Source: a virus. Taken from it: 64,000 nucleotides of DNA. A model generated the notes under the pieces. It was given only the letters and a program-made list of their open reading frames with translations. It did no database searches and had not been told where the DNA came from. Where the stretch lies: IMG/VR virus record IMGVR_UViG_3300045988_111617; one strand, written 5' to 3'. Every line of letters begins with the position of its first letter. The stretch's first letter is position 1. The position numbers were made by a program, and so were the translations under genes. This document shows, one piece after another, positions 3,475-63,211 of this stretch.

Positions 3475-3656
3475 ATAAATTTAATATGTTAGTAAAAGAA
3501 CTTATTGAGGAGCTTAAGAAGTTTCCTGAAGATGCTGATATCATAGTTACTACAAAATATAAAGGATATAATGTTATATCTTCTGTTGGAGCTATGAGAA
3601 CTGTTGAAACAGAGAAAGACAATGCTGAAACTATTTGTCCAGTATTGATTTTCTAA
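3465..3656 (+). CDS. hypothetical protein
   Basis: 63-aa ORF overlapping previous stop. Confidence 0.4.
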   Translation: MFLNKFNMLVKELIEELKKFPEDADIIVTTKYKGYNVISSVGAMRTVETEKDNAETICPVLIF

Positions 3657-3671
3657 ATATATGGGGGTGTT

Positions 3672-3845
3672 TTGGTTTTGATTACACTCTATTTGGTAGT
3701 ACCTTATGCAGTAGATGTGCAGCCTACTTTAAAAAAGCACAAACCAATAAATGCTAACAAAGCTAGAAAAACAGTTAGAAGCCTTGTAGATTATATTAAA
3801 TCTGCTATGCAGGCACCAGCAATCTCTTTTGCAGTTGCTGCCTAA
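3672..3845 (+). CDS. possible small secreted/membrane protein with TTG start
   Basis: Open frame from stop at 3654 to TAA 3843-3845 without ATG; TTG at 3672; hydrophobic N-terminus LVLITLYLVVPYA. Confidence 0.2.
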   Translation: MVLITLYLVVPYAVDVQPTLKKHKPINANKARKTVRSLVDYIKSAMQAPAISFAVAA

Positions 3846-4197
3846 CAACTGGCTTTAGTATTTGTGCCTTAAACAAATACTTGGTGGATGATGGGTGGAT
3901 GTTACCACCTGACTTTTGGAGTATTTCAGCAGTAATTGAAATACTATCCTAAGCATATAAATAAAGGTATTATTGAAGGTTTGTAAGACACAGGTTCAAC
4001 TACTCGGACCCTCTGCACAGGAATGTGCAGATGAAAACTGCTTGAACTGCTGGAAAGCTAAGTATCTGTTGAGAAACACATATATGCTAATCAGCATCCA
4101 AGCCTCTGGGAAGACAGAGGAAGGTTCAGAGACTAAGGACACTAAGGTGAGCCTACAGTAAGCAGCACCAAGAACTGGTGATGATATAGTCCAATCT

Positions 4198-4773
4198 CTA
4201 ATTAAAATTAGAAATATATTTTGAAATTAATTTAAGATATTGTTTAGTTTCTAAATCAGACATTGTATTTTTAAGATAATTTATAGGAGTAGATACAAAT
4301 TGTATATTTCCTATGATATATCCTTTAGAAGAATCTATTCTATCTAAAGAAGCCCTATTAGCAATAGGAATATCTTTAGTATGATTAGATGTAGGTAAAA
4401 TAAGAGAAATTCCAGTATATGGACATATTCCTTGCTGATTATTCCAGACTTCTCTGAGATAATCTATAGTCAAATTAAAGTTCTTATACCTCTTTTTAGC
4501 ATTTCTAAAGGTATATTTAAAAGGAGTATCTTCTGTTCTTTTATTCCCTGAAAGAGAAGATATATGCTTTTTACCTTCTTCACTGTTTCTCCAATCAGAA
4601 GTGTGATTAAGATTATGTTTATTAGCATAAAGTACTGAGCAACTTCTGGAACAGAAGTTATGTCTTCCTAATTTTAAATTTCTTTTATACTCTGATTCTG
4701 GTTTAGTAGCTTCACATCCACAATTATCACATGTAAAAGTGATAAGTTTTCTATTTTTCTTATAATTTAGCAT
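4198..4773 (-). CDS. HNH homing endonuclease
   Basis: 191 aa; N-terminal CDNCGC...CSRSC zinc-binding; C-terminal SLDRIDSSKGYIIGNIQFV typical of phage HNH_3 endonucleases. Confidence 0.6.
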   Translation of the reverse strand: MLNYKKNRKLITFTCDNCGCEATKPESEYKRNLKLGRHNFCSRSCSVLYANKHNLNHTSDWRNSEEGKKHISSLSGNKRTEDTPFKYTFRNAKKRYKNFNLTIDYLREVWNNQQGICPYTGISLILPTSNHTKDIPIANRASLDRIDSSKGYIIGNIQFVSTPINYLKNTMSDLETKQYLKLISKYISNFN

Positions 4774-5068: not shown

Positions 5069-5713
5069 ATGATTTCTATTTACTGTATTACTAATAAAAT
5101 AAATGGAAAAAAGTATGTTGGGAAAACTCATTTACCTATAACTTCCAGATTTTCCCAACATATCCATGATGCTCTGTTTAGACCTTCTATGAATAGACCT
5201 CTACATAAGGCTATATTAAAATATGGAAGAGAAAATTTTGATATAGAATTGCTATGTACCTGTAGTATAGAAGAATCAGATTCAAAGGAGTCTTATTATA
5301 TCAATAAATTAGGTACTTATAGAAAAGGATATAATGTAACTCTTGGAGGAGAAGGTAAATTTTCTATTGACTATAAAGAAGTAATTGCGGTATATAAATC
5401 TGGAAACAGTATAACAGAAACTTCAAGGATAGTAGGATGTGATAAAAGTTCTGTCTTGAAGATTTTAGATATGTATAATATTAAAAGACATCCAAGATTT
5501 TCTGTTACTTCTGGCAAGAGTAAAGCTAAAGCTGTCTTGCAATATTCATTAGATAATAAATTTCTTAGGAAATTTAACTCCTCAGAAGAAGCAGCTAAAC
5601 ATATTGTACAAGAGAGAAGAATAAAGTATAGCAAAGGGGTGTCTTCTAAAATAGCAAATTGTGCTAAACATAAGACATTCTCAGCATATGAATATAAGTG
5701 GGAGTATGAGTAA
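5069..5713 (+). CDS. GIY-YIG homing endonuclease
   Basis: MISIYCITNKINGKKYVGKT GIY-YIG motif; the ORF-track start at 4979 is TTG and lies upstream of the repeat; ATG at 5069 favoured. Confidence 0.7.
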   Translation: MISIYCITNKINGKKYVGKTHLPITSRFSQHIHDALFRPSMNRPLHKAILKYGRENFDIELLCTCSIEESDSKESYYINKLGTYRKGYNVTLGGEGKFSIDYKEVIAVYKSGNSITETSRIVGCDKSSVLKILDMYNIKRHPRFSVTSGKSKAKAVLQYSLDNKFLRKFNSSEEAAKHIVQERRIKYSKGVSSKIANCAKHKTFSAYEYKWEYE

Positions 5714-5727: not shown

Positions 5728-5731
5728 CCAT

Positions 5732-5761
5732 AGGACACTTCAGAATGAGGTGTCCTTTTTA
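5732..5761 (+). terminator. rho-independent terminator
   Basis: aggacac...gtgtcct stem followed by T-run. Confidence 0.6.
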
Positions 5762-5787
5762 TTTGTAAATCATTAAAACCTTATATT

Positions 5788-6171
5788 ATGATAGAGTATA
5801 GAGTTGTAATTTGGAACTTTTCTACTGACAGAGTAGAGCATTATGATATAATGCCTTATCTGTACAGAAGACTTGAAGAGAAGAGGAAGAAAAGGCAGAT
5901 AACATTGAAAGACCTCACTCTGGAAAAGCTGAAAGAGTTCATTGATGCTGAATCAAAGTATCAGTTCTGGGCAAGATGTGAGTATGAAGTAATACTTTCT
6001 TCATGGCCCCCAAGAGAGAATGGACGTAGACATAAGATGGATGTATATGAGCAGATTCATATGAATCTTGACAATATAGCCAAACTTATGTATGATGACC
6101 TTCAGAGAGGAAAGCCTGCAAGAGTAAGCAAGACAAATAAGTACATAAGAGTTAAAACTTTAAATAGTTAA
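5788..6171 (+). CDS. hypothetical protein
   Basis: 127-aa ORF. Confidence 0.5.
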   Translation: MIEYRVVIWNFSTDRVEHYDIMPYLYRRLEEKRKKRQITLKDLTLEKLKEFIDAESKYQFWARCEYEVILSSWPPRENGRRHKMDVYEQIHMNLDNIAKLMYDDLQRGKPARVSKTNKYIRVKTLNS

Positions 6172-8731: not shown

Positions 8732-8961
8732 AAAAAAAAATGGATAACACAGGAACATTTAAGAGTGCTCTTACTCAGAGTTTCAAGGGCATCAAGGAAA
8801 CAAAGGCTGCTGCCTTGACAACATGCAGAAGAGATATAACCTCAAGATGAATCTTGTAATTACTCATACTGATATAGACTATTCTGAAGCTGGTGTATGT
8901 TTCCCTAAAGGAGACTGCTCTTTCTTTATAAATAGTATGTCAAAGGTTCTTAAAGAGTTTC

Positions 8962-10263
8962 TTGTTCTACAGAACATCTATACCTCAGACAATCCTGATT
9001 CAAACTTTGAATTGTATGACACAAGAATTAACTGAACAGAAAAGCAGGTTACAGAATGAAATGTCAGATTACCTCAATGAAAGGGGTAATCTGGCTTTAC
9101 AATGGGCTACTGGAATAGGCAAGTCCAGAGTGGCAGTAAATGCTGTAATGGATTTGTTTAACCAGTATGGAGAAGAGTTCAGGGCCCTCATTGTAGTAGC
9201 AGAAGATGCTCATAAGGATAACTGGAGAGAAGAGTTCAAAAAAGGACTTAACCCTCTGGTATATGACTGGATAATGCCTCATGTTCAGATTATCTGTTAT
9301 GCTTCTCTCAAGAACTGGAGAGATACAAAGTGGGACATCATTGTGTTTGATGAGGCTCATCACCTTCAGTCTGATACAAGGAAGGACATTCTGCAAAGTC
9401 TTAACTCACCAAGAGTACTTGCCTTATCTGCAACTCTCAAGGAAGATGTCCTTGAGGCTCTCACCAGATGTTTTGGAAGATTCAAAGTGAGCAAGATAAC
9501 TTTGCAGGATGCCATTGATAAAGGCTTTCTTCCTGAACCAAAGATAGTCTGTATTCCTCTTGAACTCAAAAGATTTGACAGAACTGAGACTATTGAAATG
9601 GACTTGAGAACTGCCAAGTCTGGAGATAAGGGAGTTATAAAAGACCTTTGGAGCAACAGGTGGAAGTATATGAGGAACAGAAAGGCATACTTGGGATATG
9701 TTCTTAAGTTTTCATGTACTCAGAAAGAAAAGTATGAGTATATAAATGAGCAGTTTGATTACTGGAAAAGGCAATACTTCAGGAATCAGGGCAACATAAG
9801 GCTTAAGAATATGTGGCTTCAATGGGGAACCAAGAGAAAGAGATTTCTTGGTGAACTCAAGACAAGAGAAGCAGAAGAACTTTGTGTCAAACTCAATAAG
9901 GAGGGCAAGAGGTTCATCTGTTTCTGTTCTTCTATTATACAGGCTGAGTTCCTTGGAGGAGAGAACTGTATTCACTCAAAGAAGAAGGATGTAGAGGGGG
10001 TTATCTCTGCATTCAACTCAGGAAAGACTAACTCAATCTTTGCAGTAGGAATGCTTCAGGAAGGTCAGAACTTGACTAATATACAGGCAGGTATCATTGT
10101 GCAGCTTGATGGGGAGGAGAGAGGATTTATACAGAAGTTTGGTAGAAGCTTAAGAGCAGAAGACCCTGTGCAATATATCCTTTATTATAAAAATACAAGA
10201 GATGAAGAGTATCTTCAAAAAGCTCTTGAAAATATAAATAAAGATTATGTACAAGAAATATGA
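8962..10263 (+). CDS. SF2 (SNF2/DEAD-like) DNA helicase
   Basis: Walker A QWATGIGKSRVAV, DEAH-box VFDEAHHL, helicase C-terminal motifs (QEGQNLTNIQAGIIVQLDG); start may be an internal Met. Confidence 0.65.
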   Translation: MFYRTSIPQTILIQTLNCMTQELTEQKSRLQNEMSDYLNERGNLALQWATGIGKSRVAVNAVMDLFNQYGEEFRALIVVAEDAHKDNWREEFKKGLNPLVYDWIMPHVQIICYASLKNWRDTKWDIIVFDEAHHLQSDTRKDILQSLNSPRVLALSATLKEDVLEALTRCFGRFKVSKITLQDAIDKGFLPEPKIVCIPLELKRFDRTETIEMDLRTAKSGDKGVIKDLWSNRWKYMRNRKAYLGYVLKFSCTQKEKYEYINEQFDYWKRQYFRNQGNIRLKNMWLQWGTKRKRFLGELKTREAEELCVKLNKEGKRFICFCSSIIQAEFLGGENCIHSKKKDVEGVISAFNSGKTNSIFAVGMLQEGQNLTNIQAGIIVQLDGEERGFIQKFGRSLRAEDPVQYILYYKNTRDEEYLQKALENINKDYVQEI

Positions 10264-15057: not shown

Positions 15058-16035
15058 ATGGTAGCAAGAGGTTCAGACAGTACTTCTATTGAGAAGGTCA
15101 ATGACCTATATTCAGACTTTGATATTGCACACAAGTATTTAGGTATTACTTGTGTTCCTGAAGTAATTAATTCTCCACTCAGACAGGACAACAACCCTTC
15201 ATTGGGATTGTTCATAAACAACAGGACTAATAGTCTGTGGTTCAAAGATTTTGGAAGTGGAGAAAAAGGAAGTCTGTATGACCTTCTTGCCAAAATGTGG
15301 AATGTCTCCAAAGACAAGGTGTATGATAGAATCCTTGAAGATATGCCTGCTCCAGCCCTTATAAGAAAGCATGGAGTAAAGGTGTACAGGAAGTCAGCAG
15401 GCAAAGTTGAAGTTAGAGTTAGGAAATGGAGGGACTATGATATTGCCTACTGGGATTCCTATGGAATATCACTGCCTTGGCTTAAATTCGGAGAAATATA
15501 TCCCATATCTCATATTATCTTTACCAAGAATGGACACTCTTATCCTATTCCAGCAGAAAAGTATGCTTATGTCTATGTAGAAAGGAAAGACGGTATAGTC
15601 TCATTCAAGATTTACCAGCCCTACTCAAAAGAGTATAAGTGGATGTCTAAACATGACTCTTCTGTATGGGATTTATGGACTAAGATTCCAGAGAAAGGTG
15701 ATAAACTGATTATCACTTCATCAAGAAAAGATGCCCTTGCTATATGGTCTAATACAAGTATTCCTGCCCTTAGCTTGCAGGGGGAAGGTTATATACCAAA
15801 GGAGCATGTAGTCCAACAGTTGAAAGGCAGATATAATAAGGTTTATATACTTTATGATAATGACTTTCAAAGTGAAGAGAATCATGGAAGGATGTATGGT
15901 AAGATGATTGCTGAGAGATTCAATGTTACTCAGATTGAAATACCTGAGAAGTGGGGGAGCAAGGACCCTTCAGACTTAGTAAAAAATCATGGAAGAGAAG
16001 TTCTGAGAGAGGTCATAAATGAGTTAGTAAACTAA
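15058..16035 (+). CDS. DNA primase (DnaG-like, Toprim)
   Basis: Toprim signature YILYDNDFQSEENHGRMYGK...IEIPEKWGSKDPSDL. Confidence 0.6.
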   Translation: MVARGSDSTSIEKVNDLYSDFDIAHKYLGITCVPEVINSPLRQDNNPSLGLFINNRTNSLWFKDFGSGEKGSLYDLLAKMWNVSKDKVYDRILEDMPAPALIRKHGVKVYRKSAGKVEVRVRKWRDYDIAYWDSYGISLPWLKFGEIYPISHIIFTKNGHSYPIPAEKYAYVYVERKDGIVSFKIYQPYSKEYKWMSKHDSSVWDLWTKIPEKGDKLIITSSRKDALAIWSNTSIPALSLQGEGYIPKEHVVQQLKGRYNKVYILYDNDFQSEENHGRMYGKMIAERFNVTQIEIPEKWGSKDPSDLVKNHGREVLREVINELVN

Positions 16036-16049
16036 AAAAAAAAGAAACA

Positions 16050-16712
16050 ATGAGTAGAAAAGTTACTGTGCTTGTAGAGAGCACACAGAGCAAAGTTGTG
16101 TTTGAGTCAAATGCTACCACCCTTGGTGAGCTTAAGAATGAACTGAGAGAAAGACAGGTAAGGTATGATTCAAATTGTGTATTTAAGGAGGCTGCTTCAA
16201 AGACCATCCTTACATCTGATGAGTCTGTCCTTCCTTCTAACATTCCTTGGAAGGGTCAGGTAACTAATGACCTTGTGTTCATGGTCACTGCACCTCAGAA
16301 GAAAATCAGGTCTGGTGTTATGGATAGAAGGGAAGCCTATGCAAGAGTTAAGGAGCTCGGTCTTCAGGGAAAGATTCAGGAACATGAGGGAAAGAACTTC
16401 ACTCAGTGTTCAACTGCTGTTCTTATCTCCTATATAGAGAATGAGGAGAAAAAGGCAGTCAAGAAGACTCCTAAACATACTCCTGCTCCTATAGCAAAGG
16501 AGAAAGTAGTTAAAGCAGATGCCTACACTATGCCAGCATCAGGAAAAGAAATGATGTCTAATCTTAGAAACCTTCTTGATGAGATGGTATCTAAGGGAGT
16601 TCTCATGCAGCATGATGCTGATAACATCTGGGGTGTTGCCAATGGTCAGCCTGCTCTTCCTGTAGAGAGGGAGCAGTCTTATGATGAACTTGCTGAACAG
16701 TTTGACTTCTAA
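16050..16712 (+). CDS. hypothetical protein with candidate N-terminal ubiquitin-like beta-grasp
   Basis: Residues 4-85 alternate strand/helix/strand segments (KVTVLVEST, KVVFESNA, TTLGELKNELRERQ, CVFKEAASK, LVFMVTA); no terminal GG. Confidence 0.3.
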   Translation: MSRKVTVLVESTQSKVVFESNATTLGELKNELRERQVRYDSNCVFKEAASKTILTSDESVLPSNIPWKGQVTNDLVFMVTAPQKKIRSGVMDRREAYARVKELGLQGKIQEHEGKNFTQCSTAVLISYIENEEKKAVKKTPKHTPAPIAKEKVVKADAYTMPASGKEMMSNLRNLLDEMVSKGVLMQHDADNIWGVANGQPALPVEREQSYDELAEQFDF

Positions 16713-16716
16713 TAAT

Positions 16717-16765
16717 GAGGGATAAGGGTTAGGATGAATTTCCTCTCCCTTATCCCCCTTTTTTA
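16717..16765 (+). terminator. rho-independent terminator
   Basis: gagggataaggg...cccttatccccc stem followed by tttttt. Confidence 0.6.
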
Positions 16766-16770
16766 TAGGG

Positions 16771-17946
16771 ATGAATATGACAGATGAACAGAAAAAAGAA
16801 TGGGAAAATCTGTATGACAGCCTGATGGAGAAACCAAAAAGAATTCTTGAAATATTCAGTGATTATTTTGGAGAAGATAAAGTGGATATGCAAGGGTTCT
16901 GTGCTAAGGAGAACTTCTGTAAAAATAAATCATTAGGGAGGAATAATATAGATGCTATATCACATCCAGGTGGTATATTCATACTTGTATGGTTTCCTCA
17001 AGTGAAAGTCACTAATGAGTATAACAAGTCTGTAGATATACAGGACCTTTATGCTAAAGTGAAGATTAATACAAAGGGACAACTTATAGGGAAGTTCTAT
17101 CTCAATAGAGCTACCTATCCATTAAGTCATATGAGAGCTGGATATATGCATTCCCATATTCCTGGAATAAATGTCCATAACTTCTCAGAATTCCTTACAC
17201 CTTGTACTGGAGATGGGCCTATTAATGCTACTATTGGAGGTCTTAACAGGGAGTTTGACGAAGATGTATGGCAGTTATTCTGTAGTGAACTTGAAGACTT
17301 TACTCAAGTAGAGTCAATTGCAGGGGTTCCGTACAGAAGACTTGAGAATATAGGTGCCAACCCGTCTTATGATGTGACACAGAAGTTCTTTTATGTAGCC
17401 AGAGGACTTTATGGAAAGGTAGCAAGACCTCCATATGAATTTAGGGGTGTAGACCTTGGAATCATACCAGATTTCACAAGATACCTGCTTAAGAATGTCT
17501 CTCTTCCTATGGAATACTCAAATGGAACATACTGTCTTGGAATGTCTTATTATGATGCTACCATCTTGATTAGTAATAAGTTCATAGAATGGTTCAATCT
17601 TGAAGACAATCCATACAGGAGGTTATATAATTTTCAGTATTTGAAGGATATGAATATCCTTAGAGAGTATATGATAGCTGATGGTAAAATCCATACTACC
17701 AGGGCTACTGGAGATATCAATGATTATAGGGACCATGAGGGTAAACTTGTATGTAAATTCAAAGAAAGAGAGATTAGATTACACATAATTAATACTTCTT
17801 CCTCTGAACAGCATTCAGCTACCCTATTGCAAGCACATGTTATAAGGGATATAGTATCAGCTATTTGTAAAGTTGTAAATTTAAGATATGGAAGAAAAGA
17901 AGGAGAAGAGAAGTCTGAGCTTGATAGACAGACATTCTACGTATAA
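16771..17946 (+). CDS. hypothetical protein (391 aa)
   Basis: Long ORF, no motif recognised; several Cys/His clusters. Confidence 0.5.
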   Translation: MNMTDEQKKEWENLYDSLMEKPKRILEIFSDYFGEDKVDMQGFCAKENFCKNKSLGRNNIDAISHPGGIFILVWFPQVKVTNEYNKSVDIQDLYAKVKINTKGQLIGKFYLNRATYPLSHMRAGYMHSHIPGINVHNFSEFLTPCTGDGPINATIGGLNREFDEDVWQLFCSELEDFTQVESIAGVPYRRLENIGANPSYDVTQKFFYVARGLYGKVARPPYEFRGVDLGIIPDFTRYLLKNVSLPMEYSNGTYCLGMSYYDATILISNKFIEWFNLEDNPYRRLYNFQYLKDMNILREYMIADGKIHTTRATGDINDYRDHEGKLVCKFKEREIRLHIINTSSSEQHSATLLQAHVIRDIVSAICKVVNLRYGRKEGEEKSELDRQTFYV

Positions 17947-19030
17947 ACTCATAATACCTGATTTAGTTCAGAGAAAGATAAGAGAATGGTGTTATCATTT
18001 CCCTACCAAAGAATGGTCTGGAACACTGTTCTACACAGTAGAGGGTTCTTTTGAGGATAATTCTTTGGTTATTACCTGTAAGGATATTTATGTATCTGAC
18101 ATAGGTTCTGCTACCTATACAGAGTTTGACCATAGTGCTGATATTGTTACCTATCAGGCAATGAATGACCTGCTTGACTGTTATACAGGACTTATCCACT
18201 CACATAACCAAATGGCAACATTCTTCAGTGGAACAGACAGAAACACTCTTATAGAGGAAGGTATGGATATGCCTCACTTCCTCTCACTTATAGTGAATAA
18301 TGCAGGTGTATATACTGCTAAGATTACCAGAAGGGTGAGTCTTCAGACCTCTAAGATAACCTATCCTACCTTTGGTGGAGAAAATAAGTCTGAGGAAGTG
18401 GAATCTACTATAAATGAATATCTTGAGGCATTTCCTCTTGAGATAAATGTACAGGAAGATACATCTATCAGGGATGAAGTTGTTCAGAGAATCAAAGAGA
18501 TAGAAGCAGAGAAAACTACTGTAAGAAGAGCTAACTTCCCTTCTACCAAGGAGGAAGATACATCCTCTGAGGGAGAAGAGGGAGTATCATTTACTGGGAA
18601 GTTTCCCTTACAGAGAACATCAGTACAGCCAACATTATTCCCCGCTGAAGGAATATTTTCTTCAAAAACAGATGGGAGTTGGGTCAATATTGAAGTCCCT
18701 CAAGAGTTGGCTCAGAGGCTGCTTATACAGTTAGTAACTGGTTCTATCACAGCTGGTTATAGTGACAAGTTTGATATAGAGAAGTGGTGTTCCTCTGTAA
18801 TGGAGAAGGCTTTCCTCAGAAGGTTCCCTGACCCTCAGAACCTTGAGAACTGGCTTGACTGTTATATAGAGGTTCTTACATGGTATACTGACTGGAAGGA
18901 AGTTGAAAATGAGGATTCTGATATGATAGCCAAGGCTGTAGCAGCTAAATTGCTTAGCATGTGTGAGCAATTACCTGATAACAAGATACTTGATGCTATC
19001 AAGTTTAAACTTCAGGAGGAAATAGCATGA
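17888..19030 (+). CDS. JAB/MPN+ (JAMM) metalloprotease domain protein
   Basis: Upstream Glu in YTVEGSFED then HSHNQMATFFSGTD, which is exactly H-x-H-x7-S-x2-D; the JAB domain fills the N-terminal 150 aa and the 230-aa C-terminal extension is unknown. Confidence 0.6.
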   Translation: MEEKKEKRSLSLIDRHSTYKLIIPDLVQRKIREWCYHFPTKEWSGTLFYTVEGSFEDNSLVITCKDIYVSDIGSATYTEFDHSADIVTYQAMNDLLDCYTGLIHSHNQMATFFSGTDRNTLIEEGMDMPHFLSLIVNNAGVYTAKITRRVSLQTSKITYPTFGGENKSEEVESTINEYLEAFPLEINVQEDTSIRDEVVQRIKEIEAEKTTVRRANFPSTKEEDTSSEGEEGVSFTGKFPLQRTSVQPTLFPAEGIFSSKTDGSWVNIEVPQELAQRLLIQLVTGSITAGYSDKFDIEKWCSSVMEKAFLRRFPDPQNLENWLDCYIEVLTWYTDWKEVENEDSDMIAKAVAAKLLSMCEQLPDNKILDAIKFKLQEEIA

Positions 19031-19989
19031 CACAGGATACACAGGATACGTCAGTTAGACTGGCTGAAGCAATTAGTGGTCTTATAGACCAGCTCAATGA
19101 TGAGCATACTGAGACTGCTGTCTCTGAGGAGAATATTTCTGAAGAGAATACTTCTGAAGAGGTAGAAGAGCAGGCTGCATACCCAGAGTACCCAAGTATA
19201 AGTAGTGAAACTACTGTTCCTGAGCAGTCTCATGATAGGATTTCTGCCAACTCTGAGACTATTACCATTGACGCAAGTACTTCAAGGTTCAGTGGGGCAG
19301 TATGGTATAATAAAGTGCAGGAGAAAACAATCACTCTTGCAGGTTTGGGTGGTATAGGTTCTTATGTGGCTTTTCTTCTCTCAAGAATGAAGCCTAGTCA
19401 CATAAGAATCTATGATGATGATACTGTAGAATCGGCAAATATGTCAGGACAGTTCTATAGTGTTCTTGACCTCAACAAGACTAAGGCTCAAGCTATGACT
19501 GACATGATGCATAATTACAGTAGTTATTATTCCATAATCTCTCTCAATGAAAGGTTCACAGCAGGTTCCCCTTCTACTGACATCATGATTTGTGGATTTG
19601 ACAGTATGGCTGCCAGAAGGATATTCTACAGTGTATGGAAACACCATGTGATGAGCATACCTGAAGGACTAAGAAAACACTGCCTGTTCATAGATGGAAG
19701 ACTTGCAGCAGAGGAGTTCCAGGTTCTATGTATACAGGGTGATGCCAGTTATAATATGGAGAAGTATGAGAGAGATTGGCTATTCTCAGATGTTGAGGCT
19801 GATGCCACACTCTGTAGTTATAAGCAGACAACTTTCATGGCTAATATGATTGGTTCTATCATGACTAATCTCTTTGTAAACTTCTGTGCCAATGACCTTG
19901 AGGGTGATGAAAAGCCTATGATAGATAGGAGTCTTCCATTCCTTACATCATATGATGCTTCTTTGATGATGTTTACTACGGAGGCTTGA
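19027..19989 (+). CDS. E1-like (ThiF/MoeB family) adenylyltransferase
   Basis: Gly-rich loop TLAGLGGIGSYVAF, Asp motif IYDDDTVESANMSGQFY (compare D-x-D-x-V-x-x-SNL-x-RQ), candidate crossover-loop Cys in MICGFDS; acidic N-terminal extension. Confidence 0.6.
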   Translation: MTQDTQDTSVRLAEAISGLIDQLNDEHTETAVSEENISEENTSEEVEEQAAYPEYPSISSETTVPEQSHDRISANSETITIDASTSRFSGAVWYNKVQEKTITLAGLGGIGSYVAFLLSRMKPSHIRIYDDDTVESANMSGQFYSVLDLNKTKAQAMTDMMHNYSSYYSIISLNERFTAGSPSTDIMICGFDSMAARRIFYSVWKHHVMSIPEGLRKHCLFIDGRLAAEEFQVLCIQGDASYNMEKYERDWLFSDVEADATLCSYKQTTFMANMIGSIMTNLFVNFCANDLEGDEKPMIDRSLPFLTSYDASLMMFTTEA

Positions 19990-20753
19990 TTATGATTACA
20001 GCAGTTTACAATGACCTCATTACTCGTCCCTTCAATACTATACATGTAGATACAGGTACGTTTGTTACAAATTCCTCCTGTCTCGAAAAGCATGATATAC
20101 TGAATGGATACATATGTACAGATATGAATCATACTGGTTCATTTGAAGTACCTATGGCTATGCTTCCTTATCTTGAGACTATCTTGGCACAGCCAAAGAT
20201 AAAGTGGAAGCAGATTGCTATGCCCCTATACTATGATGATACTGTCATAAAGAATACTTCTTATGCTATCCTAAAATATTTCTTCAGAGACACTTCAGTA
20301 GGTGGAGGAAGACTCTCTAAGGTTACAACAGGAAAAGGAGAGGTTTATTATGGAGGAAATGGGATGATATTTGACCAACATATGAAACCTCTTGTCCTGT
20401 ATACTGTTACTGTTACAGGTATGACTCCTATAACTGTTCCTCCCAGGCTAACAAGAATGAAGACAACCATTTCTGCCCTTAATGTGAGAGTGTCTCCTAA
20501 GGTGCTTCTTAAGGATGATATGCTCAAGAAGAACATAATCTCCAAGGTTATACCTTCACTTGTATCAAGAAGTTTTGCAAATATAAGGGGTGCAGTATTA
20601 GATAAGCCTATAACTCCTAAGGTTATCATTGAAGACCTTTCAGAGTGGATTAAAAGACCTGCAAAAGTAGGTAGTCCTCAGACCTTCAAGGAAGATATGC
20701 AGAAGTTCCTGTCAAGAGAGGATATTGTTCAGGATATAATAGAATGCCTATGA
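19986..20753 (+). CDS. hypothetical protein
   Basis: 255-aa ORF. Confidence 0.5.
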   Translation: MIMITAVYNDLITRPFNTIHVDTGTFVTNSSCLEKHDILNGYICTDMNHTGSFEVPMAMLPYLETILAQPKIKWKQIAMPLYYDDTVIKNTSYAILKYFFRDTSVGGGRLSKVTTGKGEVYYGGNGMIFDQHMKPLVLYTVTVTGMTPITVPPRLTRMKTTISALNVRVSPKVLLKDDMLKKNIISKVIPSLVSRSFANIRGAVLDKPITPKVIIEDLSEWIKRPAKVGSPQTFKEDMQKFLSREDIVQDIIECL

Positions 20754-21388
20754 CTTGGGATAGTACAGTATCAGTAGATAGTATGGCTGTTCCTTGGTCT
20801 AAGGTCATAAAATCTGGAAGACCCTTTTGTCCTGATAAGAATGACATTCTCAAGGCATTCTCATACTGTAGTCCTGATAACTGCAAGGTAGTATTTCTTG
20901 GACAAGACCCATATCCTCAGAAGGGTGTTACAACAGGCATACTGTTTGCAAATAAGTCAGAAACTTTGCCTGAACAACTATCCCCTTCATTGAAGGTCAT
21001 CAAAAATTCTTTGTTTGAAGACTTGCATATTTCAGAAAAAGATTCTAACTTTGACCCTTCATTAATATCCTGGGCAGTACAGGGGATACTTATGATTAAC
21101 TCTGCACTTACTGTAGAGATGAACAAGGTAGGTTCTCATGTTATGATATGGAGACCTTTCATATCAAAACTCCTGAGGAATCTGTCTCTGTATAATCCAG
21201 ATATACTGTTTGTTCTGTTTGGTTCACAAGCAAGCACATTCAGACCTTATATCAACAAGGAAAGTACTGTTCTTGAGATACCTCACCCTGCATATAGTGC
21301 AAGAACTGGAGAAAAATTTCCTCTTATCTTCAATGCAATAAATGAAATTCTTGCAAAGAAAGGTAAGGAGAAGATACGTTGGATTTAA
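20744..21388 (+). CDS. uracil-DNA glycosylase family 1-like
   Basis: KVVFLGQDPYPQKG (GQDPY motif) and LEIPHPAYSA (HPSPLS-like) in the correct order. Confidence 0.55.
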   Translation: MPMTWDSTVSVDSMAVPWSKVIKSGRPFCPDKNDILKAFSYCSPDNCKVVFLGQDPYPQKGVTTGILFANKSETLPEQLSPSLKVIKNSLFEDLHISEKDSNFDPSLISWAVQGILMINSALTVEMNKVGSHVMIWRPFISKLLRNLSLYNPDILFVLFGSQASTFRPYINKESTVLEIPHPAYSARTGEKFPLIFNAINEILAKKGKEKIRWI

Positions 21389-22639: not shown

Positions 22640-23670
22640 TGAAATCATTGAAAGATATATCATGGGATGTAACAGAAGACCAATATAGAGCTGATTCAGC
22701 ATTGTCCTATTCAACCCTTTCAAGATTCAATAGAGAGGGTTTTGACAATCTTGCTCATCTATTTGATAAAACAGAAAGTCCATCTTTGTTATTTGGTTCA
22801 GTAGTTGATTGTCTACTTACTGGAACTGAGGAGGAATTTAAAGATAGATTTTTTGTAGCAGATTTCTCTGAACTTCCAGATAAACAAAAGGAAATTGTTG
22901 AAGGCATATTTCATGCTGCTAAACCTGGGGAGTCTTGGGATAAGATAATGGATGCTGTTATTTTAGAGTATCTATTGGCTAATAATTATCAGCCTAATTG
23001 GAGAACAGAAACCAGAATTAAAGTAATAAGAGAAGCTGGTAGAGAATATTATGATTTACTTACTCTTGCTGAGGGAAAGACAGTGATATCACAGAAATTG
23101 TATCAGGATGCTTTAGACTGTGTGGAGACATTAAGAAGGTCTGAAAGCACCAAGTGGTATTTTGAAGCAGACAATCCTTTCAACAAGAATATTGAAAGAC
23201 TATACCAGTTGAAGTTCAAAGGAAGTTATGAGGGTATAAACCTCAGATGTATGGCTGACCTTATTATAGTAGACCATGAGAAGAAGATAGTATATCCTTG
23301 TGACCTTAAGACTTCTTTCAAACCTGAGTGGAGATTCTACAAGTCCTTCATGGAATGGGGATATTGGATTCAAGCTCAACTGTACTGGTATCTTATCAGG
23401 CAGGCTATGGATGGAGATGAATACTTCAAGGACTTCAAACTGGCAGATTACAGGTTTATTGTCATAAGTAACAGGACAAGAAAACCTCTTGTGTGGGAAT
23501 TCCCACAGACTCGGGCTATTACTGACCTTAAACTTGGGGAGCATAAACTCAGGAACTGGAGAAGTATAGCAAAAGAACTTAATACTTACCTTACCAAGGA
23601 CTATGAAGTTCCAATAGATATTAACATGAATTCAATCAACAATATAAGCAAGTGGCTAGAGAATGAATGA
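22624..23670 (+). CDS. PD-(D/E)XK nuclease (RecB/lambda-exonuclease-like)
   Basis: CMADLIIVDHEKKIVYPCDLKTS: the D...D-x-K arrangement. Confidence 0.45.
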   Translation: MGRRIMKSLKDISWDVTEDQYRADSALSYSTLSRFNREGFDNLAHLFDKTESPSLLFGSVVDCLLTGTEEEFKDRFFVADFSELPDKQKEIVEGIFHAAKPGESWDKIMDAVILEYLLANNYQPNWRTETRIKVIREAGREYYDLLTLAEGKTVISQKLYQDALDCVETLRRSESTKWYFEADNPFNKNIERLYQLKFKGSYEGINLRCMADLIIVDHEKKIVYPCDLKTSFKPEWRFYKSFMEWGYWIQAQLYWYLIRQAMDGDEYFKDFKLADYRFIVISNRTRKPLVWEFPQTRAITDLKLGEHKLRNWRSIAKELNTYLTKDYEVPIDINMNSINNISKWLENE

Positions 23671-25861
23671 GTATAAAGTAGTTAAGAGAGATGGCACTCT
23701 TGCAGAATTTGATGAAGAAAAGATTGTCAATGCAGTTGCTGCTGCATTTGAATCAGTAGGGCAGACCCTGCCACCAGGACTTATAGAGTCTTTTATCAAG
23801 ACAATTGAAGTCAATCTCCCTAATCCTGTAGCAGTAGAGGAGATACAGAATAGGGTTGAAAGATACCTTATGGACAACAAATATTTTCAGGCAGCAAAAT
23901 CTTTCATTCTATATAGAGAGAAACACAAGCAGGCAAGATTCATTAGGGAGAGGATTGATTATATGAATAAATATAGCCAGTCTAATGATAATGCAGCTAC
24001 TTCATCAGAGACAGATGCTAATGCAAATGTAACTATGAAGAATGTGGCTAATCTTGAAGGAGAAGTGTATAAAACCACTAATAGAGTCATTCAAAGACAG
24101 AGGATGAAGGATAAACTAAATGAGATGTTTCCTGAGGTAGCTAAGAAGTATGAGGAGGATTTGAATCATCATATCATTTATACCCATGATGAGGCTACCA
24201 CCCCTGTATTGAAGCAATACTGTATGGCAGTAAGTCTATATCCTCTTATGATGGAGGGAGTAGGTAATATTGATGGTGTCACACCTTCAGCACCTAATGA
24301 TTTACAGTCATTCAGTGGACAAATTACCAATCTTATATTCCTTCTTTCTTCTCAATGTAAGGGAGCAGTTGCAGTAGGTGAATACTTTATTGCACTGAAT
24401 TATTATATTGTGAAAGAGTTTGGAGAAGATTGGTATAATAGATTAGATGAGGTAACTACTTCTCCTGCTTGTAATAAGCAAAGAACTATTAGAGATGCTG
24501 TATATAAGGCATTCAAGCAGTTTATTTATGGTGTAAATCAGCCTGCTGGTAATAGGTCATATCAGAGTCCATTTACTAATGTGTCTTATTATGACCACAC
24601 ATATTTTAATTCACTGTTTGGAGAGTTCATCTATCCTGATGGTACTAAACCTCAATGGGAAGCTATAGATTGTCTTCAGAAGCTGTTTATGAAGTTCTTC
24701 AATAAACTGAGAACTAAACAGATTCTTACTTTCCCAGTAGAGACAATGGCTATGGTGTATGACCCAAAGACCAATGATATTATAGATAAGGACTACAAAG
24801 ACTTTACTGCTGAAATGTATGCAGAAGGTCATAGTTTCTTTACCTATATATCAGATAGTGCTGATAGCTTGGCTTCATGCTGTAGGTTGAGAAATGAACT
24901 TGCAGAGAATACTTTCAATCCTACATCAGGTCTTACTGGTGTTATGACTGGTTCTTGTAATGTTATTACTCTTAATATTAACAGAATTATACAGGATTGG
25001 GCTAAACAAGAAACTACTTGGTGGAGTACGGAAGGAGATAAAAACCTTCTTCATTGTAAGGATAATGTCTCACTCTTTAAGAAATATTTAGTAGATATCC
25101 TTGAAAGAGTCTACAAGTATCATATTGCATTCAAGACAATGCTCTATGAACTCGAAGATAAGGGAATGTTTGCAGCTTCAAATGGTGGATATATTCATAT
25201 CAGCAAGTTGTACAGCACTATTGGTATTAATGGCTTGAATGAGGCTGCAAGGTTCTTGGGTCTTGAAGTAGGTAATAATCCTGAGTACATTGAGTTTCTA
25301 CAACTCATACTTGGAACTATCAAAGAGGAGAATAAGAAGCATTCTATTCATGATAAGAAGAGACCTTTCTTGTTTAATTCTGAGGTAGTACCTGCTGAGG
25401 GATTGGGAGGAAAGAATTATCAATGGGATTTGCAAGATGGGTACGTAGTGCCTGATGATGAGAACCTATACAACTCATATTTCTATGATGCCCATGATGA
25501 TACTTCAGTACTTGACAAGTTTATTCTTCATGGAAGGCAGACTTATCAATTCACTGATGGTGGTTCAGCGGCTCATATCAATCTTGAAGACCATCTGAGT
25601 AAAGAGCAGTATCTCAAGTTGATAGACTTTGCAATAGCCAATGGTACTAACTACTTCACATTCAATATTCCTAACAGTAAGTGTGATGATTGTGGGTATA
25701 TCACTAAGCACCCAATCACAGAGTGCCCTAAGTGTCATAGTCACAACATTACTCAATATACAAGGGTAATTGGGTATCTTAGGCCTATTAAGTCCTTTGG
25801 TGAGGATAGACAGATTGAAGCAGCTAAGAGAACCTATAGTGATGGAAGGAGTGAGATATGA
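23663..25861 (+). CDS. nrdD: anaerobic ribonucleoside-triphosphate reductase (class III)
   Basis: N-terminal ATP-cone (VVKRDGTLAEFDEEKIVNAV), C-terminal Zn ribbon CDDCGY...CPKCHS, glycyl-radical motif TRVIGYLRP. Confidence 0.75.
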   Translation: MNEYKVVKRDGTLAEFDEEKIVNAVAAAFESVGQTLPPGLIESFIKTIEVNLPNPVAVEEIQNRVERYLMDNKYFQAAKSFILYREKHKQARFIRERIDYMNKYSQSNDNAATSSETDANANVTMKNVANLEGEVYKTTNRVIQRQRMKDKLNEMFPEVAKKYEEDLNHHIIYTHDEATTPVLKQYCMAVSLYPLMMEGVGNIDGVTPSAPNDLQSFSGQITNLIFLLSSQCKGAVAVGEYFIALNYYIVKEFGEDWYNRLDEVTTSPACNKQRTIRDAVYKAFKQFIYGVNQPAGNRSYQSPFTNVSYYDHTYFNSLFGEFIYPDGTKPQWEAIDCLQKLFMKFFNKLRTKQILTFPVETMAMVYDPKTNDIIDKDYKDFTAEMYAEGHSFFTYISDSADSLASCCRLRNELAENTFNPTSGLTGVMTGSCNVITLNINRIIQDWAKQETTWWSTEGDKNLLHCKDNVSLFKKYLVDILERVYKYHIAFKTMLYELEDKGMFAASNGGYIHISKLYSTIGINGLNEAARFLGLEVGNNPEYIEFLQLILGTIKEENKKHSIHDKKRPFLFNSEVVPAEGLGGKNYQWDLQDGYVVPDDENLYNSYFYDAHDDTSVLDKFILHGRQTYQFTDGGSAAHINLEDHLSKEQYLKLIDFAIANGTNYFTFNIPNSKCDDCGYITKHPITECPKCHSHNITQYTRVIGYLRPIKSFGEDRQIEAAKRTYSDGRSEI

Positions 25862-26577: not shown

Positions 26578-27045
26578 ATGCTTAAAATAAAGATAAAAAC
26601 ATTCAAAGACCAAATTCTGCCAGAAATTATCAATAAGGGAGATTGGATAGACCTCAGAGCAGCAGAAGAATATAACCTAAAACCAGGAGAATACAAACTA
26701 CTTAAATTAGGAGTAGCAATGGAACTTCCTAAAGGTTTTGAGGCTCTTGTAATTCCAAGAAGTTCTACTTTTAAGAACTATGGAGTTCTTCTTGCCAATT
26801 CTGTAGGAATGATAGATGGTAGCTATAATGGAGATGATGATGAATGGAGATTTCCTGCATATTGTTTAGTAGAGAAGCCTATTCATAAAGGAGATAGAAT
26901 TTGTCAGTTTAGAATTCAGCTATCTCAAAAAGCCACTTTTTGGCAAAAAATAAAATGGTTTTTAAATGATAAAATAAAGATAATAAACGTAGAAAAATTG
27001 AATACCATTAACAGAGGTGGGATTGGAAGCACAGGAAGGAAATAA
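26578..27045 (+). CDS. dut: dUTP diphosphatase
   Basis: ALVIPRSSTFKNYGVLLANSVGMIDGSYNGDDDEWRF...GDRICQ dUTPase motifs; start moved to the ATG after the terminator. Confidence 0.7.
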   Translation: MLKIKIKTFKDQILPEIINKGDWIDLRAAEEYNLKPGEYKLLKLGVAMELPKGFEALVIPRSSTFKNYGVLLANSVGMIDGSYNGDDDEWRFPAYCLVEKPIHKGDRICQFRIQLSQKATFWQKIKWFLNDKIKIINVEKLNTINRGGIGSTGRK

Positions 27046-27068
27046 CCTGTGCTATTGTTGGACAGAAA

Positions 27069-27575
27069 ATGAAAAAAAAAATGGTATTGACTTTAGTAAT
27101 TTGTTTCTTAGTTGCAGTAATGGCAGCATTCAGTAGAGATGCACTTAACCTATGGCTATCTAAAAAGGTAGGGTTTCCTCTTAAGGAGACTATAACTAAG
27201 GAAGGTATTCCCATAGTTACCCTTAAGAATGGAGAGAAAGAATTTAACTTCATTCTTGATACTGGGAGTACTGTATCTCATATAGACTCTACTATTAAGG
27301 ATTCTCTATCTGATGTAGAGGAAGTTGAAGGTAACAATTTTGCTATTGCTACTGCAAATGGTTCAGTTGAAGGTAACAACAGCTGGATTAGAGTTCCTTT
27401 GAACTACAAGAAACAGAGCTTTATCGAGGATTTCATGCCTTTGGACTTACATGATACCTTTGAAGATATAAAGGAAGAGACAGGGTTACAATTGCATGGT
27501 GTTCTTGGTAATACCTTCCTTAGAAAGTACAGATATGTACTTGATTATGATGATTTAGTTGCATATACAAAATGA
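27069..27575 (+). CDS. secreted retropepsin-like aspartic protease (candidate)
   Basis: Signal peptide MKKKMVLTLVICFLVAVMAAFS; FILDTGSTVSHID (D-T-G-S active-site motif). Confidence 0.4.
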   Translation: MKKKMVLTLVICFLVAVMAAFSRDALNLWLSKKVGFPLKETITKEGIPIVTLKNGEKEFNFILDTGSTVSHIDSTIKDSLSDVEEVEGNNFAIATANGSVEGNNSWIRVPLNYKKQSFIEDFMPLDLHDTFEDIKEETGLQLHGVLGNTFLRKYRYVLDYDDLVAYTK

Positions 27576-34927: not shown

Positions 34928-35040
34928 TACTATAATTAGTAATCAAATTAGAGAGTATACAGATTAATACTTAATAGCTTGGTTAATTAAAATTAAATAC
35001 TTATCTTTGTCTATCTTTAAATTAATTAATACCAAATAAC

Positions 35041-42276: not shown

Positions 42277-42279
42277 TTT

Positions 42280-46338: not shown

Positions 46339-46342
46339 TAAC

Positions 46343-46379
46343 AAAAAAAAGAGACTCAGTTTTGAGTCTCTTTTTTTTT
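46343..46379. terminator. bidirectional rho-independent terminator between convergent gene blocks
   Basis: aaaaaaaa-gagactca-gttt-tgagtctc-ttttttttt. Confidence 0.75.
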
Positions 46380-46399
46380 ATTTTACCCCTAGAAAAAAT

Positions 46400-62676: not shown

Positions 62677-63211
62677 ACAGATTATTTATAGCAGCTGCCT
62701 CTCTTATAGACTTATACTCTGCCATAAAATCTCCAATTTTTGAAAACTGAAGAACAGCTTTACTACATTTTATCTTGGCTGCTTCTGCACCATGTAATAT
62801 CTGTTCTTTTGGAAATATCCTTCCTTTAAGAGAACTTGCTATTTTACTTCTCCACTCTTTAGATAAAGTTCTTCCCTTCCTTTGTTTAGACCATATCTTC
62901 TTTGTTTCCTCTGATGGTTTGTATCCCAAATATCCATCCCCACCATCTGAAAGGTTGTAAGAAATACCTAAACTTTTATAGTGTCTTATAAGGTCTATCT
63001 CCAGAGACTTAGCTGTAAATTCATCTAATCCAGTAAATAGAACTTCATGCTTTATGTTATTCCATCCATACTTTAGTATGGCATTAAAGAAATAAGTATG
63101 TCTTTTGTATCCTTTCCCATTGTACCATCTCTTTTCAGGAATTTGAGTAGTGATTCCTATATAAACTTTTCCTGATGGAGATGTATGTCTATATAAACTG
63201 TATGACTTCAT
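62603..63211 (-). CDS. GIY-YIG homing endonuclease
   Basis: YSLYRHTSPSGKVYIGIT GIY-YIG motif; inserted between structural genes. Confidence 0.65.
   Translation of the reverse strand: MKSYSLYRHTSPSGKVYIGITTQIPEKRWYNGKGYKRHTYFFNAILKYGWNNIKHEVLFTGLDEFTAKSLEIDLIRHYKSLGISYNLSDGGDGYLGYKPSEETKKIWSKQRKGRTLSKEWRSKIASSLKGRIFPKEQILHGAEAAKIKCSKAVLQFSKIGDFMAEYKSIREAAAINNLCAGDITKCCKGRQHSCGGFIWRYK

Follow-up and report, generated by a model that had tools for sequence, protein, structure and literature searches.

To our knowledge, every characterised prokaryotic system that conjugates ubiquitin-like proteins (Ubls), namely type II CBASS (cyclic oligonucleotide-based antiphage signalling system), Bil and Bub, is bacterial and has been shown or proposed to act against phages. 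The Bil genes, bilABCD, encode a Ubl, an E2, a JAB metalloprotease and an E1. BilC, the JAB protein, pre-processes BilA and exposes its C-terminal Gly (PMC10557695; PMC11601596), and BilD, the E1, consists of an inactive adenylation domain, an active adenylation domain and a Cys domain (PMC11601596). The classical sulfur-carrier pathways taken for comparison have no E2 (PMC10557695). In phages of the lambda/T1 type, the JAB domain of protein K is predicted to cut protein I at a conserved Gly (Iyer et al., 2006). The subject here is a locus in phage DNA, IMG/VR record IMGVR_UViG_3300045988_111617, of which a stretch of 64,000 nucleotides (the window) was analysed. Four of its genes, termed A to D, appear to specify the same four parts as bilABCD in the same order, and a conserved gene, E, follows them.

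The reading favoured, with somewhat better than even confidence, is that this is a phage-encoded Ubl conjugation cassette made up of a Ubl with a C-terminal extension (A), an E2-like protein (B), a JAB metalloprotease (C) and an E1 (D), and then gene E. An earlier note on this DNA had seen an E1 and JAB pair, had placed phage Ubl conjugation first among three possible roles, and had offered a candidate beta-grasp for the 220-residue protein A and a possible E2-like nature for the 391-residue protein B. The four open reading frames (ORFs) it listed, at 16050-19989 on the + strand, are present as claimed. All four identities are supported, those of D and C by sequence and those of A and B by predicted folds together with invariant residues.

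The genes were followed by phmmer across 83 loci, i.e. 80 IMG/VR contigs and the phages crAss001, bajarodcaudo virus 1 and FpV4. Gene A was found in 81, B in 79, C and D in all 83, and E in 82, with the order constant. Genes A-D are a cassette and not a chance neighbourhood. When the JAB and E1 proteins were used as tblastn queries, each found 74 of 50,697 phage records, with identical breakdowns by organism and by host; all belong to the Steigviridae crAss-like phages or to the FpV4-like phages of Flavobacterium. Among 185,579 species genomes scanned, only 11 contigs (L084-L094) gave a hit, all from metagenome-assembled genomes and all with the same cassette in the same order. With these, the synteny extends to every one of the 94 related loci compared. 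Since every one of these contigs carries the phage cassette, they are probably phage sequences that were mis-binned. Their bin labels include Clostridium, Bacilli, Spirochaetia, Bifidobacterium, Nitrososphaerota and Thermotogaceae, among others.

Megablast of the region against the same 50,697 GenBank phage records gave no match; the phage is new at the DNA level. At the protein level, identity to Steigviridae crAss-like phages such as crAss001 and cr85_1 is ~55-59%; this and the agreement in synteny place the phage with the Steigviridae. Some of the homologues already bear names. In the GenBank record of crAss001, Gp76 is labelled 'thiamine biosynthesis protein ThiF' and Gp77 'metalloprotease domain containing protein', and Gp79 (the Ubl) and Gp78 (the E2-like protein) are hypothetical; records of relatives use similar names for the two enzymes, and one record has 'E1 enzyme family protein'. 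The thiamine biosynthesis label is probably misleading. The combination had been thought undescribed, which does not hold for these labels; it holds for the searchable full-text literature (subscription-only papers not covered), where no paper was found that ties crAss-like or Flavobacterium phages to ThiF, JAB or Ubl conjugation.

At the amino acid sequence level, D has the clearest relatives. It scores 59.6 bits against Pfam ThiF (PF00899; gathering cutoff 28.1), and its best NCBIfam match is a ThiF model at 58 bits, with a second ThiF model at 49. The closest PADLOC models are those of the Cap2 E1-E2 proteins (8e-12), and BilD is also matched (5.2e-6). A profile of four D sequences finds UBA5 (2e-8), MccB (6e-8), PaaA (4e-7), NAE1, TcdA and ThiF in the PDB, and hhalign aligns the D family with Escherichia coli ThiF at 96.9% probability across residues 82-201. 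The G-x-G-G-I-[GS]-S loop, D130/D132, K153, D192 and a Cys are complete in 88 of 88 homologues, and an invariant R87 aligns with the Arg of R-Y-x-R-Q. By its sequence, D is thus supported as a member of the ThiF/E1 adenylation-domain superfamily. The Gly-rich loop LAGLGGIGS cited in the earlier note stands. The Cys that the note chose does not: Cys189, in MICGFDS, is Ser in FpV4, and the invariant one is C263. In a MAFFT alignment C263 shares a column with C184 of ThiF, the residue that forms the ThiF-ThiS acyl-disulfide. The ThiF reference used has 251 aa, and both this length and where its Cys184 lies agree with the literature. The start codon of D overlaps the stop codon of C (ATGA). The acidic N-terminal segment of D varies greatly in length between phages; it is about 140 aa in crAss001 and is absent in FpV4, where the whole homologue has 228 aa.

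The ThiF likeness raises the question of whether the locus encodes a sulfur carrier. The E1 would then adenylate the C-terminal Gly89 of the Ubl domain, a thiocarboxylate would form there and would be used to thiolate a nucleoside or cofactor, as with ThiS/ThiF, MoaD/MoeB, TtuB/TtuC and CysO/Mec+, and the JAB protein would only expose or recycle the carrier. The curated models that D matches best are indeed ThiF models, yet its scores lie far under the equivalog cutoffs (58 against 159 bits for ThiF, NF006395; 23 against 449 for MoeB). It resembles ThiF and MoeB in being a small single-domain E1, but it has neither a rhodanese domain nor a CxxC Zn-binding site. The neighbourhood, with its genes for uracil-DNA glycosylase (UDG), NrdD/G and dUTPase, would suit nucleic acid chemistry, and a JAB protein is known to occur in company with a sulfur carrier (Iyer et al., 2006). 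On the other hand, a search of the window for an ORF with the PP-loop (SGGxDS) of a sulfurtransferase found none, and the strict co-inheritance extends to a UBC-fold protein whose Cys is invariant. A sulfur-carrier function is, on this evidence, unlikely. The presence of MccB and PaaA among the best PDB matches brings in another chemistry, in which D would adenylate the C-terminus of a peptide, as these two enzymes do in the biosynthesis of ribosomally synthesised and post-translationally modified peptides, and the other proteins would be unrelated to it. However, both matches are confined to the nucleotide-binding half of the domain, which is generic. Neither a precursor peptide nor an exporter turned up, although no search was aimed at either, and the co-inheritance of a beta-grasp with a Gly tail, an E2 fold and a JAB protein suggests a Ubl system. 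Peptide modification is highly improbable.

Gene C is supported as a JAB/MPN+ (JAMM) metalloprotease by an invariant motif and consistent Pfam matches. The protein of the window scores 21.9 bits against Prok-JAB, under the Pfam cutoff of 25, and all 15 of 15 diverse homologues match the same family (best E 3.8e-5). The PADLOC JAB model gives E 0.0047. A profile of the C family against the PDB has Pyrococcus JAMM1 and CSN5 as its best matches, with the motif in register, at an E of only ~0.09. The combination of EWSG and H-x-H-x7-S-x2-D is found in 85 of 87 distinct homologues, and the remaining two are truncated ORFs. The second element had been recognised correctly in the earlier note; the Glu assigned to it, E52 in YTVEGSFED, varies, and the invariant Glu is E42 in K-E-W-S-G. 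That note had also allowed that D might belong to a non-E1 Rossmann family, that C might have a non-JAB fold or that the motif residues might not be conserved. All three were examined and none was found.

The remainder of C is also conserved. Residues about 240-380 (18600-19030) are helical and contain Q-L-x-T-G-S-I, K-W, R-F and L-P-x-N motifs, and this domain has no match in any library searched. In the Flavobacterium phages Fpv1, Fpv2, Fpv20 and the FPSV series, the JAB match spans only residues 102-165 (E 5e-4), and the E1 match equals that of FpV4 in length. The JAB N-terminus of these phages may have diverged, been split or been degraded. Genes B and C overlap out of frame by 59 nucleotides (nt) in the window (17888-17946), 62 nt in crAss001 (5340-5401 of its locus) and 125 nt in FpV4 (5731-5855 of its locus); the overlap is unusually long and is conserved.

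The Ubl itself was recognised at the level of the predicted fold. An AlphaFold2 model of A shows the order beta-beta-alpha-beta-beta...beta, with a mean predicted local distance difference test (pLDDT) score of 70, and of about 80 for residues 1-80; residues 84-88 form a low-pLDDT tail. The model was built on a shallow alignment of 19 rows because the profile search run for a deeper one returned almost only sequences >90% identical. Directly after the last strand, K84, S88 and G89 are invariant across the alignment. The Gly is kept even in homologues of ~20% identity, where the tail reads K-S-G-G (FpV4 and L091), I-D-G-G (L089) or K-S-G (L092 and L093). The predicted fold and the invariant C-terminal Gly tail support residues 1-89 as a ubiquitin-like beta-grasp.

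Natural interruptions of gene A mark the same position. In two related contigs, L038 and L032, an ORF for an HNH_3/NUMOD homing endonuclease interrupts the gene exactly after K-K-I-[KR]-S-G, and a third, L029, has a decayed and partly deleted copy. Compared with L012, where the gene is uninterrupted, the insertion adds about 574 nt. The split in L038 and L032 leaves a stand-alone Ubl ORF of 91 aa, which ends ...S-G-K-F or ...S-G-I-C, and a separate C-terminal ORF. Since the endonuclease sits exactly at the Gly, this residue marks a domain boundary of A, whether the insertion is an intron or a true split. That the split is due to a group I intron was rejected, as Rfam gave no match at E<=1.

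Beyond the Gly, residues 90-220 of A comprise a small helical domain (93-137) and, after a disordered linker, an acidic tail that is conserved. The tail reads S-x-Y-S-D-D-E-I-D-x-M-F in most homologues, also in the form ...S-P-Y-S-D-D-E-I-D-x-M-F. Pfam matches in this part are below threshold (DUF6913, 0.0016; SAP, 0.14 in one homologue), and the sequence pattern of the helical domain may be read as HeH/SAP-like.

Gene B was likewise assigned from its predicted structure. The AlphaFold2 model, from an alignment of 69 rows, has a mean pLDDT of 81.5 and shows a long N-terminal helix, a beta-meander, a loop with the motifs Y125-x-x-S128-H129 and C145-x-G147, and then helices. Cap2 and a CdnG-associated E2 are among the fold matches of the model, and a BFVD fold search matched only uncharacterised crAss-like proteins. 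S128-H129 and C145-x-G147 are both invariant; the second lies 16 residues past the first, in the loop that joins the last strand to the following helix. Of 83 distinct homologues, very divergent ones included, all 83 have the S-H...C-x-G motif, as would fit the need of a catalytic E2. Where E2 enzymes have H-P-N, B has Y-x-x-S-H. Predicted fold and invariant Cys together support B as an E2-like protein of the UBC fold. The family is large, with 2,852 representatives at 50% identity (E<=1e-3), and many public gene calls start B at Met19 (nt 16825).

Might the locus serve protein processing and nothing else? The beta-grasp would then be a cleavable N-terminal pro-domain or chaperone for a DNA- or replisome-binding part of A, and B would be a non-catalytic UEV/RWD-type adaptor or an unrelated Cys-His enzyme. 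The acidic tail of A is like that of single-stranded DNA-binding proteins, the conserved domain bearing it is fused to the Ubl, and a Ubl with an extra domain beside a JAB protein has a phage precedent in lambda I and K (Iyer et al., 2006). The missing Arg of D discussed below would also be in keeping with such a role. It leaves unexplained, however, why an E1 is co-inherited with its ATP loop, its Asp/Lys/Asp set and its Cys intact in every homologue, as well as why B has an invariant Cys throughout its family, and it is improbable.

Gene E adjoins D in 82 of the 83 loci and is tightly packed against D and the UDG gene. Its core motif is V-Y-Y-G-G-x-G-[IM]-I-[LF]-D...P-L-[LV]-L, and it has no match in any library nor in the PDB. 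Searches of A, B and E against Pfam, PHROGs, NCBIfam and PADLOC returned only PHROGs of unknown function or sub-threshold noise. For the most divergent loci, membership in the E family was considered for the genes that follow the E1; this could not be demonstrated, as the likeness is at the motif level and the hhalign probability is <10%. Because those loci keep only this motif-level resemblance, the membership of E in the system is uncertain, and E is a possible fifth component.

At the RNA level, the gap between A and B has a GC-rich, terminator-like hairpin that is followed by a run of T residues and ends shortly before the start of B. Its predicted folding energy is -26.6 kcal/mol (z = -2.8), and a simple terminator scan missed it because of an interior loop. 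Of 48 distinct relatives, 35 have a GC-rich hairpin with a T-run in this gap, and the stem sequences differ. As there is no room for a promoter after the hairpin, B-E would be expressed by read-through. The hairpin suggests attenuation, as far as the sequence can indicate.

If the cassette conjugates a Ubl, the following course may be proposed. The product of gene A would exceed the enzymes in amount, as a tag should, given that the terminator-like hairpin comes after A and before the enzyme genes. The JAB protein would cut A after Ser88-Gly89, which would release the Ubl as 89 residues that end in Gly and, as a second product, the small helical protein that bears the acidic tail. Such trimming is expected because the parts and their order are those of Bil, where BilC processes BilA. 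The single-domain E1, probably a homodimer like ThiF, MoeB and UBA5, would adenylate Gly89 and would hold the Ubl as a thioester on Cys263, from where it would be handed to Cys145 of the E2-like B. The C-terminal domain of B, protein E or both would pick the targets, and in the replication phase the Ubl would be joined to lysines of proteins of the phage or of the host. The JAB protein may also reverse the modification. That a lytic phage lineage, cultured crAss-like phages of the human gut included, runs its own Ubl cascade to tag host or phage proteins, e.g. those of the replisome or of defence, during replication has perhaps an even chance of being correct.

Several points weigh against conjugation. 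Its support comes wholly from sequence comparison and predicted folds. A has no sequence match to any Ubl family in Pfam, NCBIfam, PADLOC or the PDB, and by hhalign its N-terminal profile matches ubiquitin, NEDD8, SUMO1, ThiS, MoaD and Urm1 no better than it matches unrelated controls. B similarly matches no E2 family (Pfam UQ_con, Prok-E2, NCBIfam, PADLOC, PDB), and topology is the basis on which C145 may be equated with the catalytic Cys of E2 enzymes. The equivalence of C263 and ThiF C184 comes from a global alignment, and the hhalign alignment of D with ThiF ends short of the Cys region. The nearest named families of D are the sulfur-carrier activators (ThiF), not the conjugating E1s. The Asp motif of D lacks the Arg of N-L-x-R-Q, and no homologue has it: the window reads N-M-S-G-Q (nt 19438-19452, residues 138-142), and Gly, Thr or similar residues take the place of the Arg across the homologues. 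No CxxC Zn-binding pairs are found in D when it is aligned with ThiF and MoeB. Since both of these features are absent, the chemistry of D may differ, and an invariant D-G-R (223-225) might compensate for the Arg. Neither a target nor an E3 has been recognised for the cassette.

ORFs A-E are tightly packed on the + strand, and their flanks are, from the family matches of the neighbouring genes, a replication and nucleotide-metabolism module. A helicase gene and a primase gene lie upstream and the UDG and NrdD genes downstream, where there are also genes for a DUF1064 protein, a PD-(D/E)XK-like protein, an NrdG-like activase, dUTPase and a family-A DNA polymerase (PolA). Family searches confirmed UDG, NrdD, the NrdG-like activase and dUTPase, which had been named as neighbours before. 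The position bears on whether the module instead undoes or jams the Ubl immunity of the host (type II CBASS Cap2/Cap3 or Bil), be it by JAB stripping, by decoys or by modification of defence proteins. Host systems of the Ubl kind target phage proteins (PMC11601596), the closest PADLOC models of D are those of Cap2 and BilD, and the cassette is limited to particular phage lineages. It nevertheless resides in the conserved core replication module of every relative. Anti-defence genes usually lie in variable accessory islands. The cassette is moreover kept from gut Bacteroides phages to phages of a fish-pathogenic Flavobacterium and to contigs binned with unrelated taxa, and a lone deconjugase needs no Ubl, E1 and E2 of its own. 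Counter-defence is quite unlikely on these grounds, and as the sole purpose it is disfavoured by the core-module position and universal presence, but it is compatible with a conjugation mechanism.

Some other features of the window may be recorded. Between the genes for dUTPase and DNA polymerase A, an ORF at 27012-27572 has weak matches to retroviral-type aspartyl proteases (E 3e-4 and 8e-4, below the Pfam cutoff). At about 46335-46403, between convergent giant ORFs, the coding strand switches and the GC and AT skews change sign. There are no tRNA genes in the whole window. Coordinates of the features are listed in Table 1.

Table 1. Features of the cassette and of its surroundings (positions refer to the window unless a contig is named).
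Feature	Position (nt)	Strand	Residues	Description
Gene A	16050-16712	+	220 aa	Putative Ubl with C-terminal extension
A, Ubl domain	16050-16316	+	1-89	Predicted ubiquitin-like beta-grasp
A, tail	16299-16316		84-89	K84-K-I-R-S88-G89
A, C-terminal part	16317-16712	+	90-220	
A-B hairpin	16719-16756	+		In the A-B gap
T-run after hairpin, 7 nt before the start of B	16759-16764	+		
Gene B	16771-17946	+	391 aa	E2-like (predicted UBC fold); C-terminal domain about 230-391
B, first motif	17143-17157		125-129	Y125-x-x-S128-H129
B, second motif	17203-17205 (Cys)		145-147	C145-x-G147
Gene C	17888-19030	+	380 aa	Putative JAB/MPN+ metalloprotease
C, JAB/MPN+ domain			about 20-160	N-terminal; followed by the conserved helical C-terminal domain
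C, Glu of the catalytic set	18011-18013		42	E42, invariant
C, remaining catalytic set	18197-18238		104-117	H104-S-H106, S114, D117, all invariant
Gene D	19027-19989	+	320 aa	Putative ThiF/MoeB/UBA5-type E1
D, N-terminus	19027-19270		1-80	Acidic, low complexity
D, adenylation domain			85-320	Single E1 domain (~235 aa)
D, G-loop	19336-19362			L-A-G-L-G-G-I-G-S
D, other landmarks				R87; D130/D132; N138; Q142; K153; D192; R197; all invariant
D, invariant Cys	19813-19815		263	C263, in C-[ST]-x-K-Q-T
Gene E	19986-20753	+	255 aa	Function not assigned; real start possibly ATG at 19992
DEAD/ResIII helicase	8932-10260			Upstream of the cassette
Primase	15058-16035			Upstream of the cassette
UDG	20744-21388			Downstream of the cassette
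NrdD	23663-25861			Downstream of the cassette
Giant ORF	35026-42273	+	2416 aa	
Giant ORF	42277-46335	+	1353 aa	
Giant ORF	46403-52660	-	2086 aa	
Giant ORF	56941-62685	-	1915 aa	
Interrupted gene A	L038: 3162-4375			
Interrupted gene A	L032: 3144-4445			
Interrupted gene A	L029: about 3494-4454			Decayed, partly deleted endonuclease copy

A full Ubl toolkit in the core replication module of a phage would reverse the picture of bacteria using such systems against phages. It suggests that phages also use protein tagging, whether to control their own replication, to take over the host or to fight immunity. If the conjugation reading is correct, this would be the first Ubl conjugation system of a virus of bacteria, a mirror image of Bil immunity. 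Its Ubl and E2 would belong to families for which no relatives can be detected by sequence, and its E1 would have one domain and do without an Arg that is supposed to be essential. Such a minimal E1 (about 230 aa, with neither the Zn site nor the Arg), in company with an E2 fold, bears on how E1-E2 cascades evolved from ThiF-type enzymes. The cassette is widespread and is present in culturable pairs, namely crAss001 with Bacteroides intestinalis, DAC15/17 with B. thetaiotaomicron and FpV4 with Flavobacterium psychrophilum, and the idea of Ubl conjugation is therefore directly testable.

In comparison with known systems, the sulfur-carrier type (ThiF/ThiS, MoeB/MoaD, archaeal SAMP/UbaA/JAMM and Thermus TtuB/TtuC) resembles the phage cassette in having a single-domain E1 that acts on a Gly-terminated beta-grasp. 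SAMP/UbaA and TtuB/TtuC also have a JAMM protease, and protein conjugation by them can proceed with no E2. An E2-fold protein is part of the phage cassette, whose E1 differs from the ThiF/MoeB type in the absence of the N-L-x-R-Q Arg, the CxxC pairs and the rhodanese domain. The partners ThiS and MoaD stand alone, whereas the phage partner is a fusion protein accompanied by the E2-like protein. Proteins I (Ubl plus C-terminal domain) and K (JAB plus NlpC/P60) of lambda and T1 are likewise a phage beta-grasp with a conserved terminal Gly, an extra domain and an adjoining JAB protein. They have no E1 or E2 and function in tail assembly; the cassette has both and is part of the replication module.

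The PRTRC (ParB-related, ThiF-related cassette) system of plasmids and conjugative elements is, like the phage locus, carried by a mobile element and combines a small E1 of the ThiF type with a JAB protein. The matches are weak: PRTRC_ThiF scores 34.3 bits with D against a cutoff of 144.75, and PRTRC_A is matched by 11 of 15 JAB homologues with a best E of 0.054. No ParB or other PRTRC protein was detected, and A, B and E match no PRTRC model. Membership in PRTRC was rejected on these scores. With Cap2 and Cap3 the cassette would share E1/E2 chemistry and a JAB antagonist, and the Cap2 models that are the best PADLOC match of D are matched in the E1 half only. Cap2 is an E2-E1 fusion; the phage E1 and E2-like proteins are products of separate genes. 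The substrate of Cap2 is the C-terminus of a CD-NTase, and that of the phage enzymes would be a dedicated beta-grasp protein. In type II CBASS, cyclase and effector genes are adjacent, and none is found beside the phage cassette. Bub (6E/DUF6527) works through oxyester (Ser) intermediates and a serine protease. Since the phage E1 and E2-like proteins both have an invariant Cys, thioester chemistry would be expected instead, and the phage protease is a putative JAB metalloprotease.

Bil is the closest in composition. Its E1 and E2 also have conserved Cys residues, which implies thioester chemistry in both systems. It sits in a bacterial defence island, in contrast to the position of the cassette in the replication module of a lytic phage. 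BilD has three parts, whereas the core of D is one adenylation domain, and the phage Ubl is a single beta-grasp fused to a C-terminal protein of 130 aa. The phage A and B proteins match no PADLOC Bil model, C matches only the generic JAB model and D matches BilD weakly. The cassette belongs to none of Bil, Cap2/Cap3, Bub and PRTRC, as its E1 consists of one small domain and its Ubl and E2 represent new sequence families. What is new is thus a phage-borne, minimal-E1 form of prokaryotic Ubl conjugation, as the predicted folds and sequence matches would have it, with Ubl and E2 sequence families of its own.

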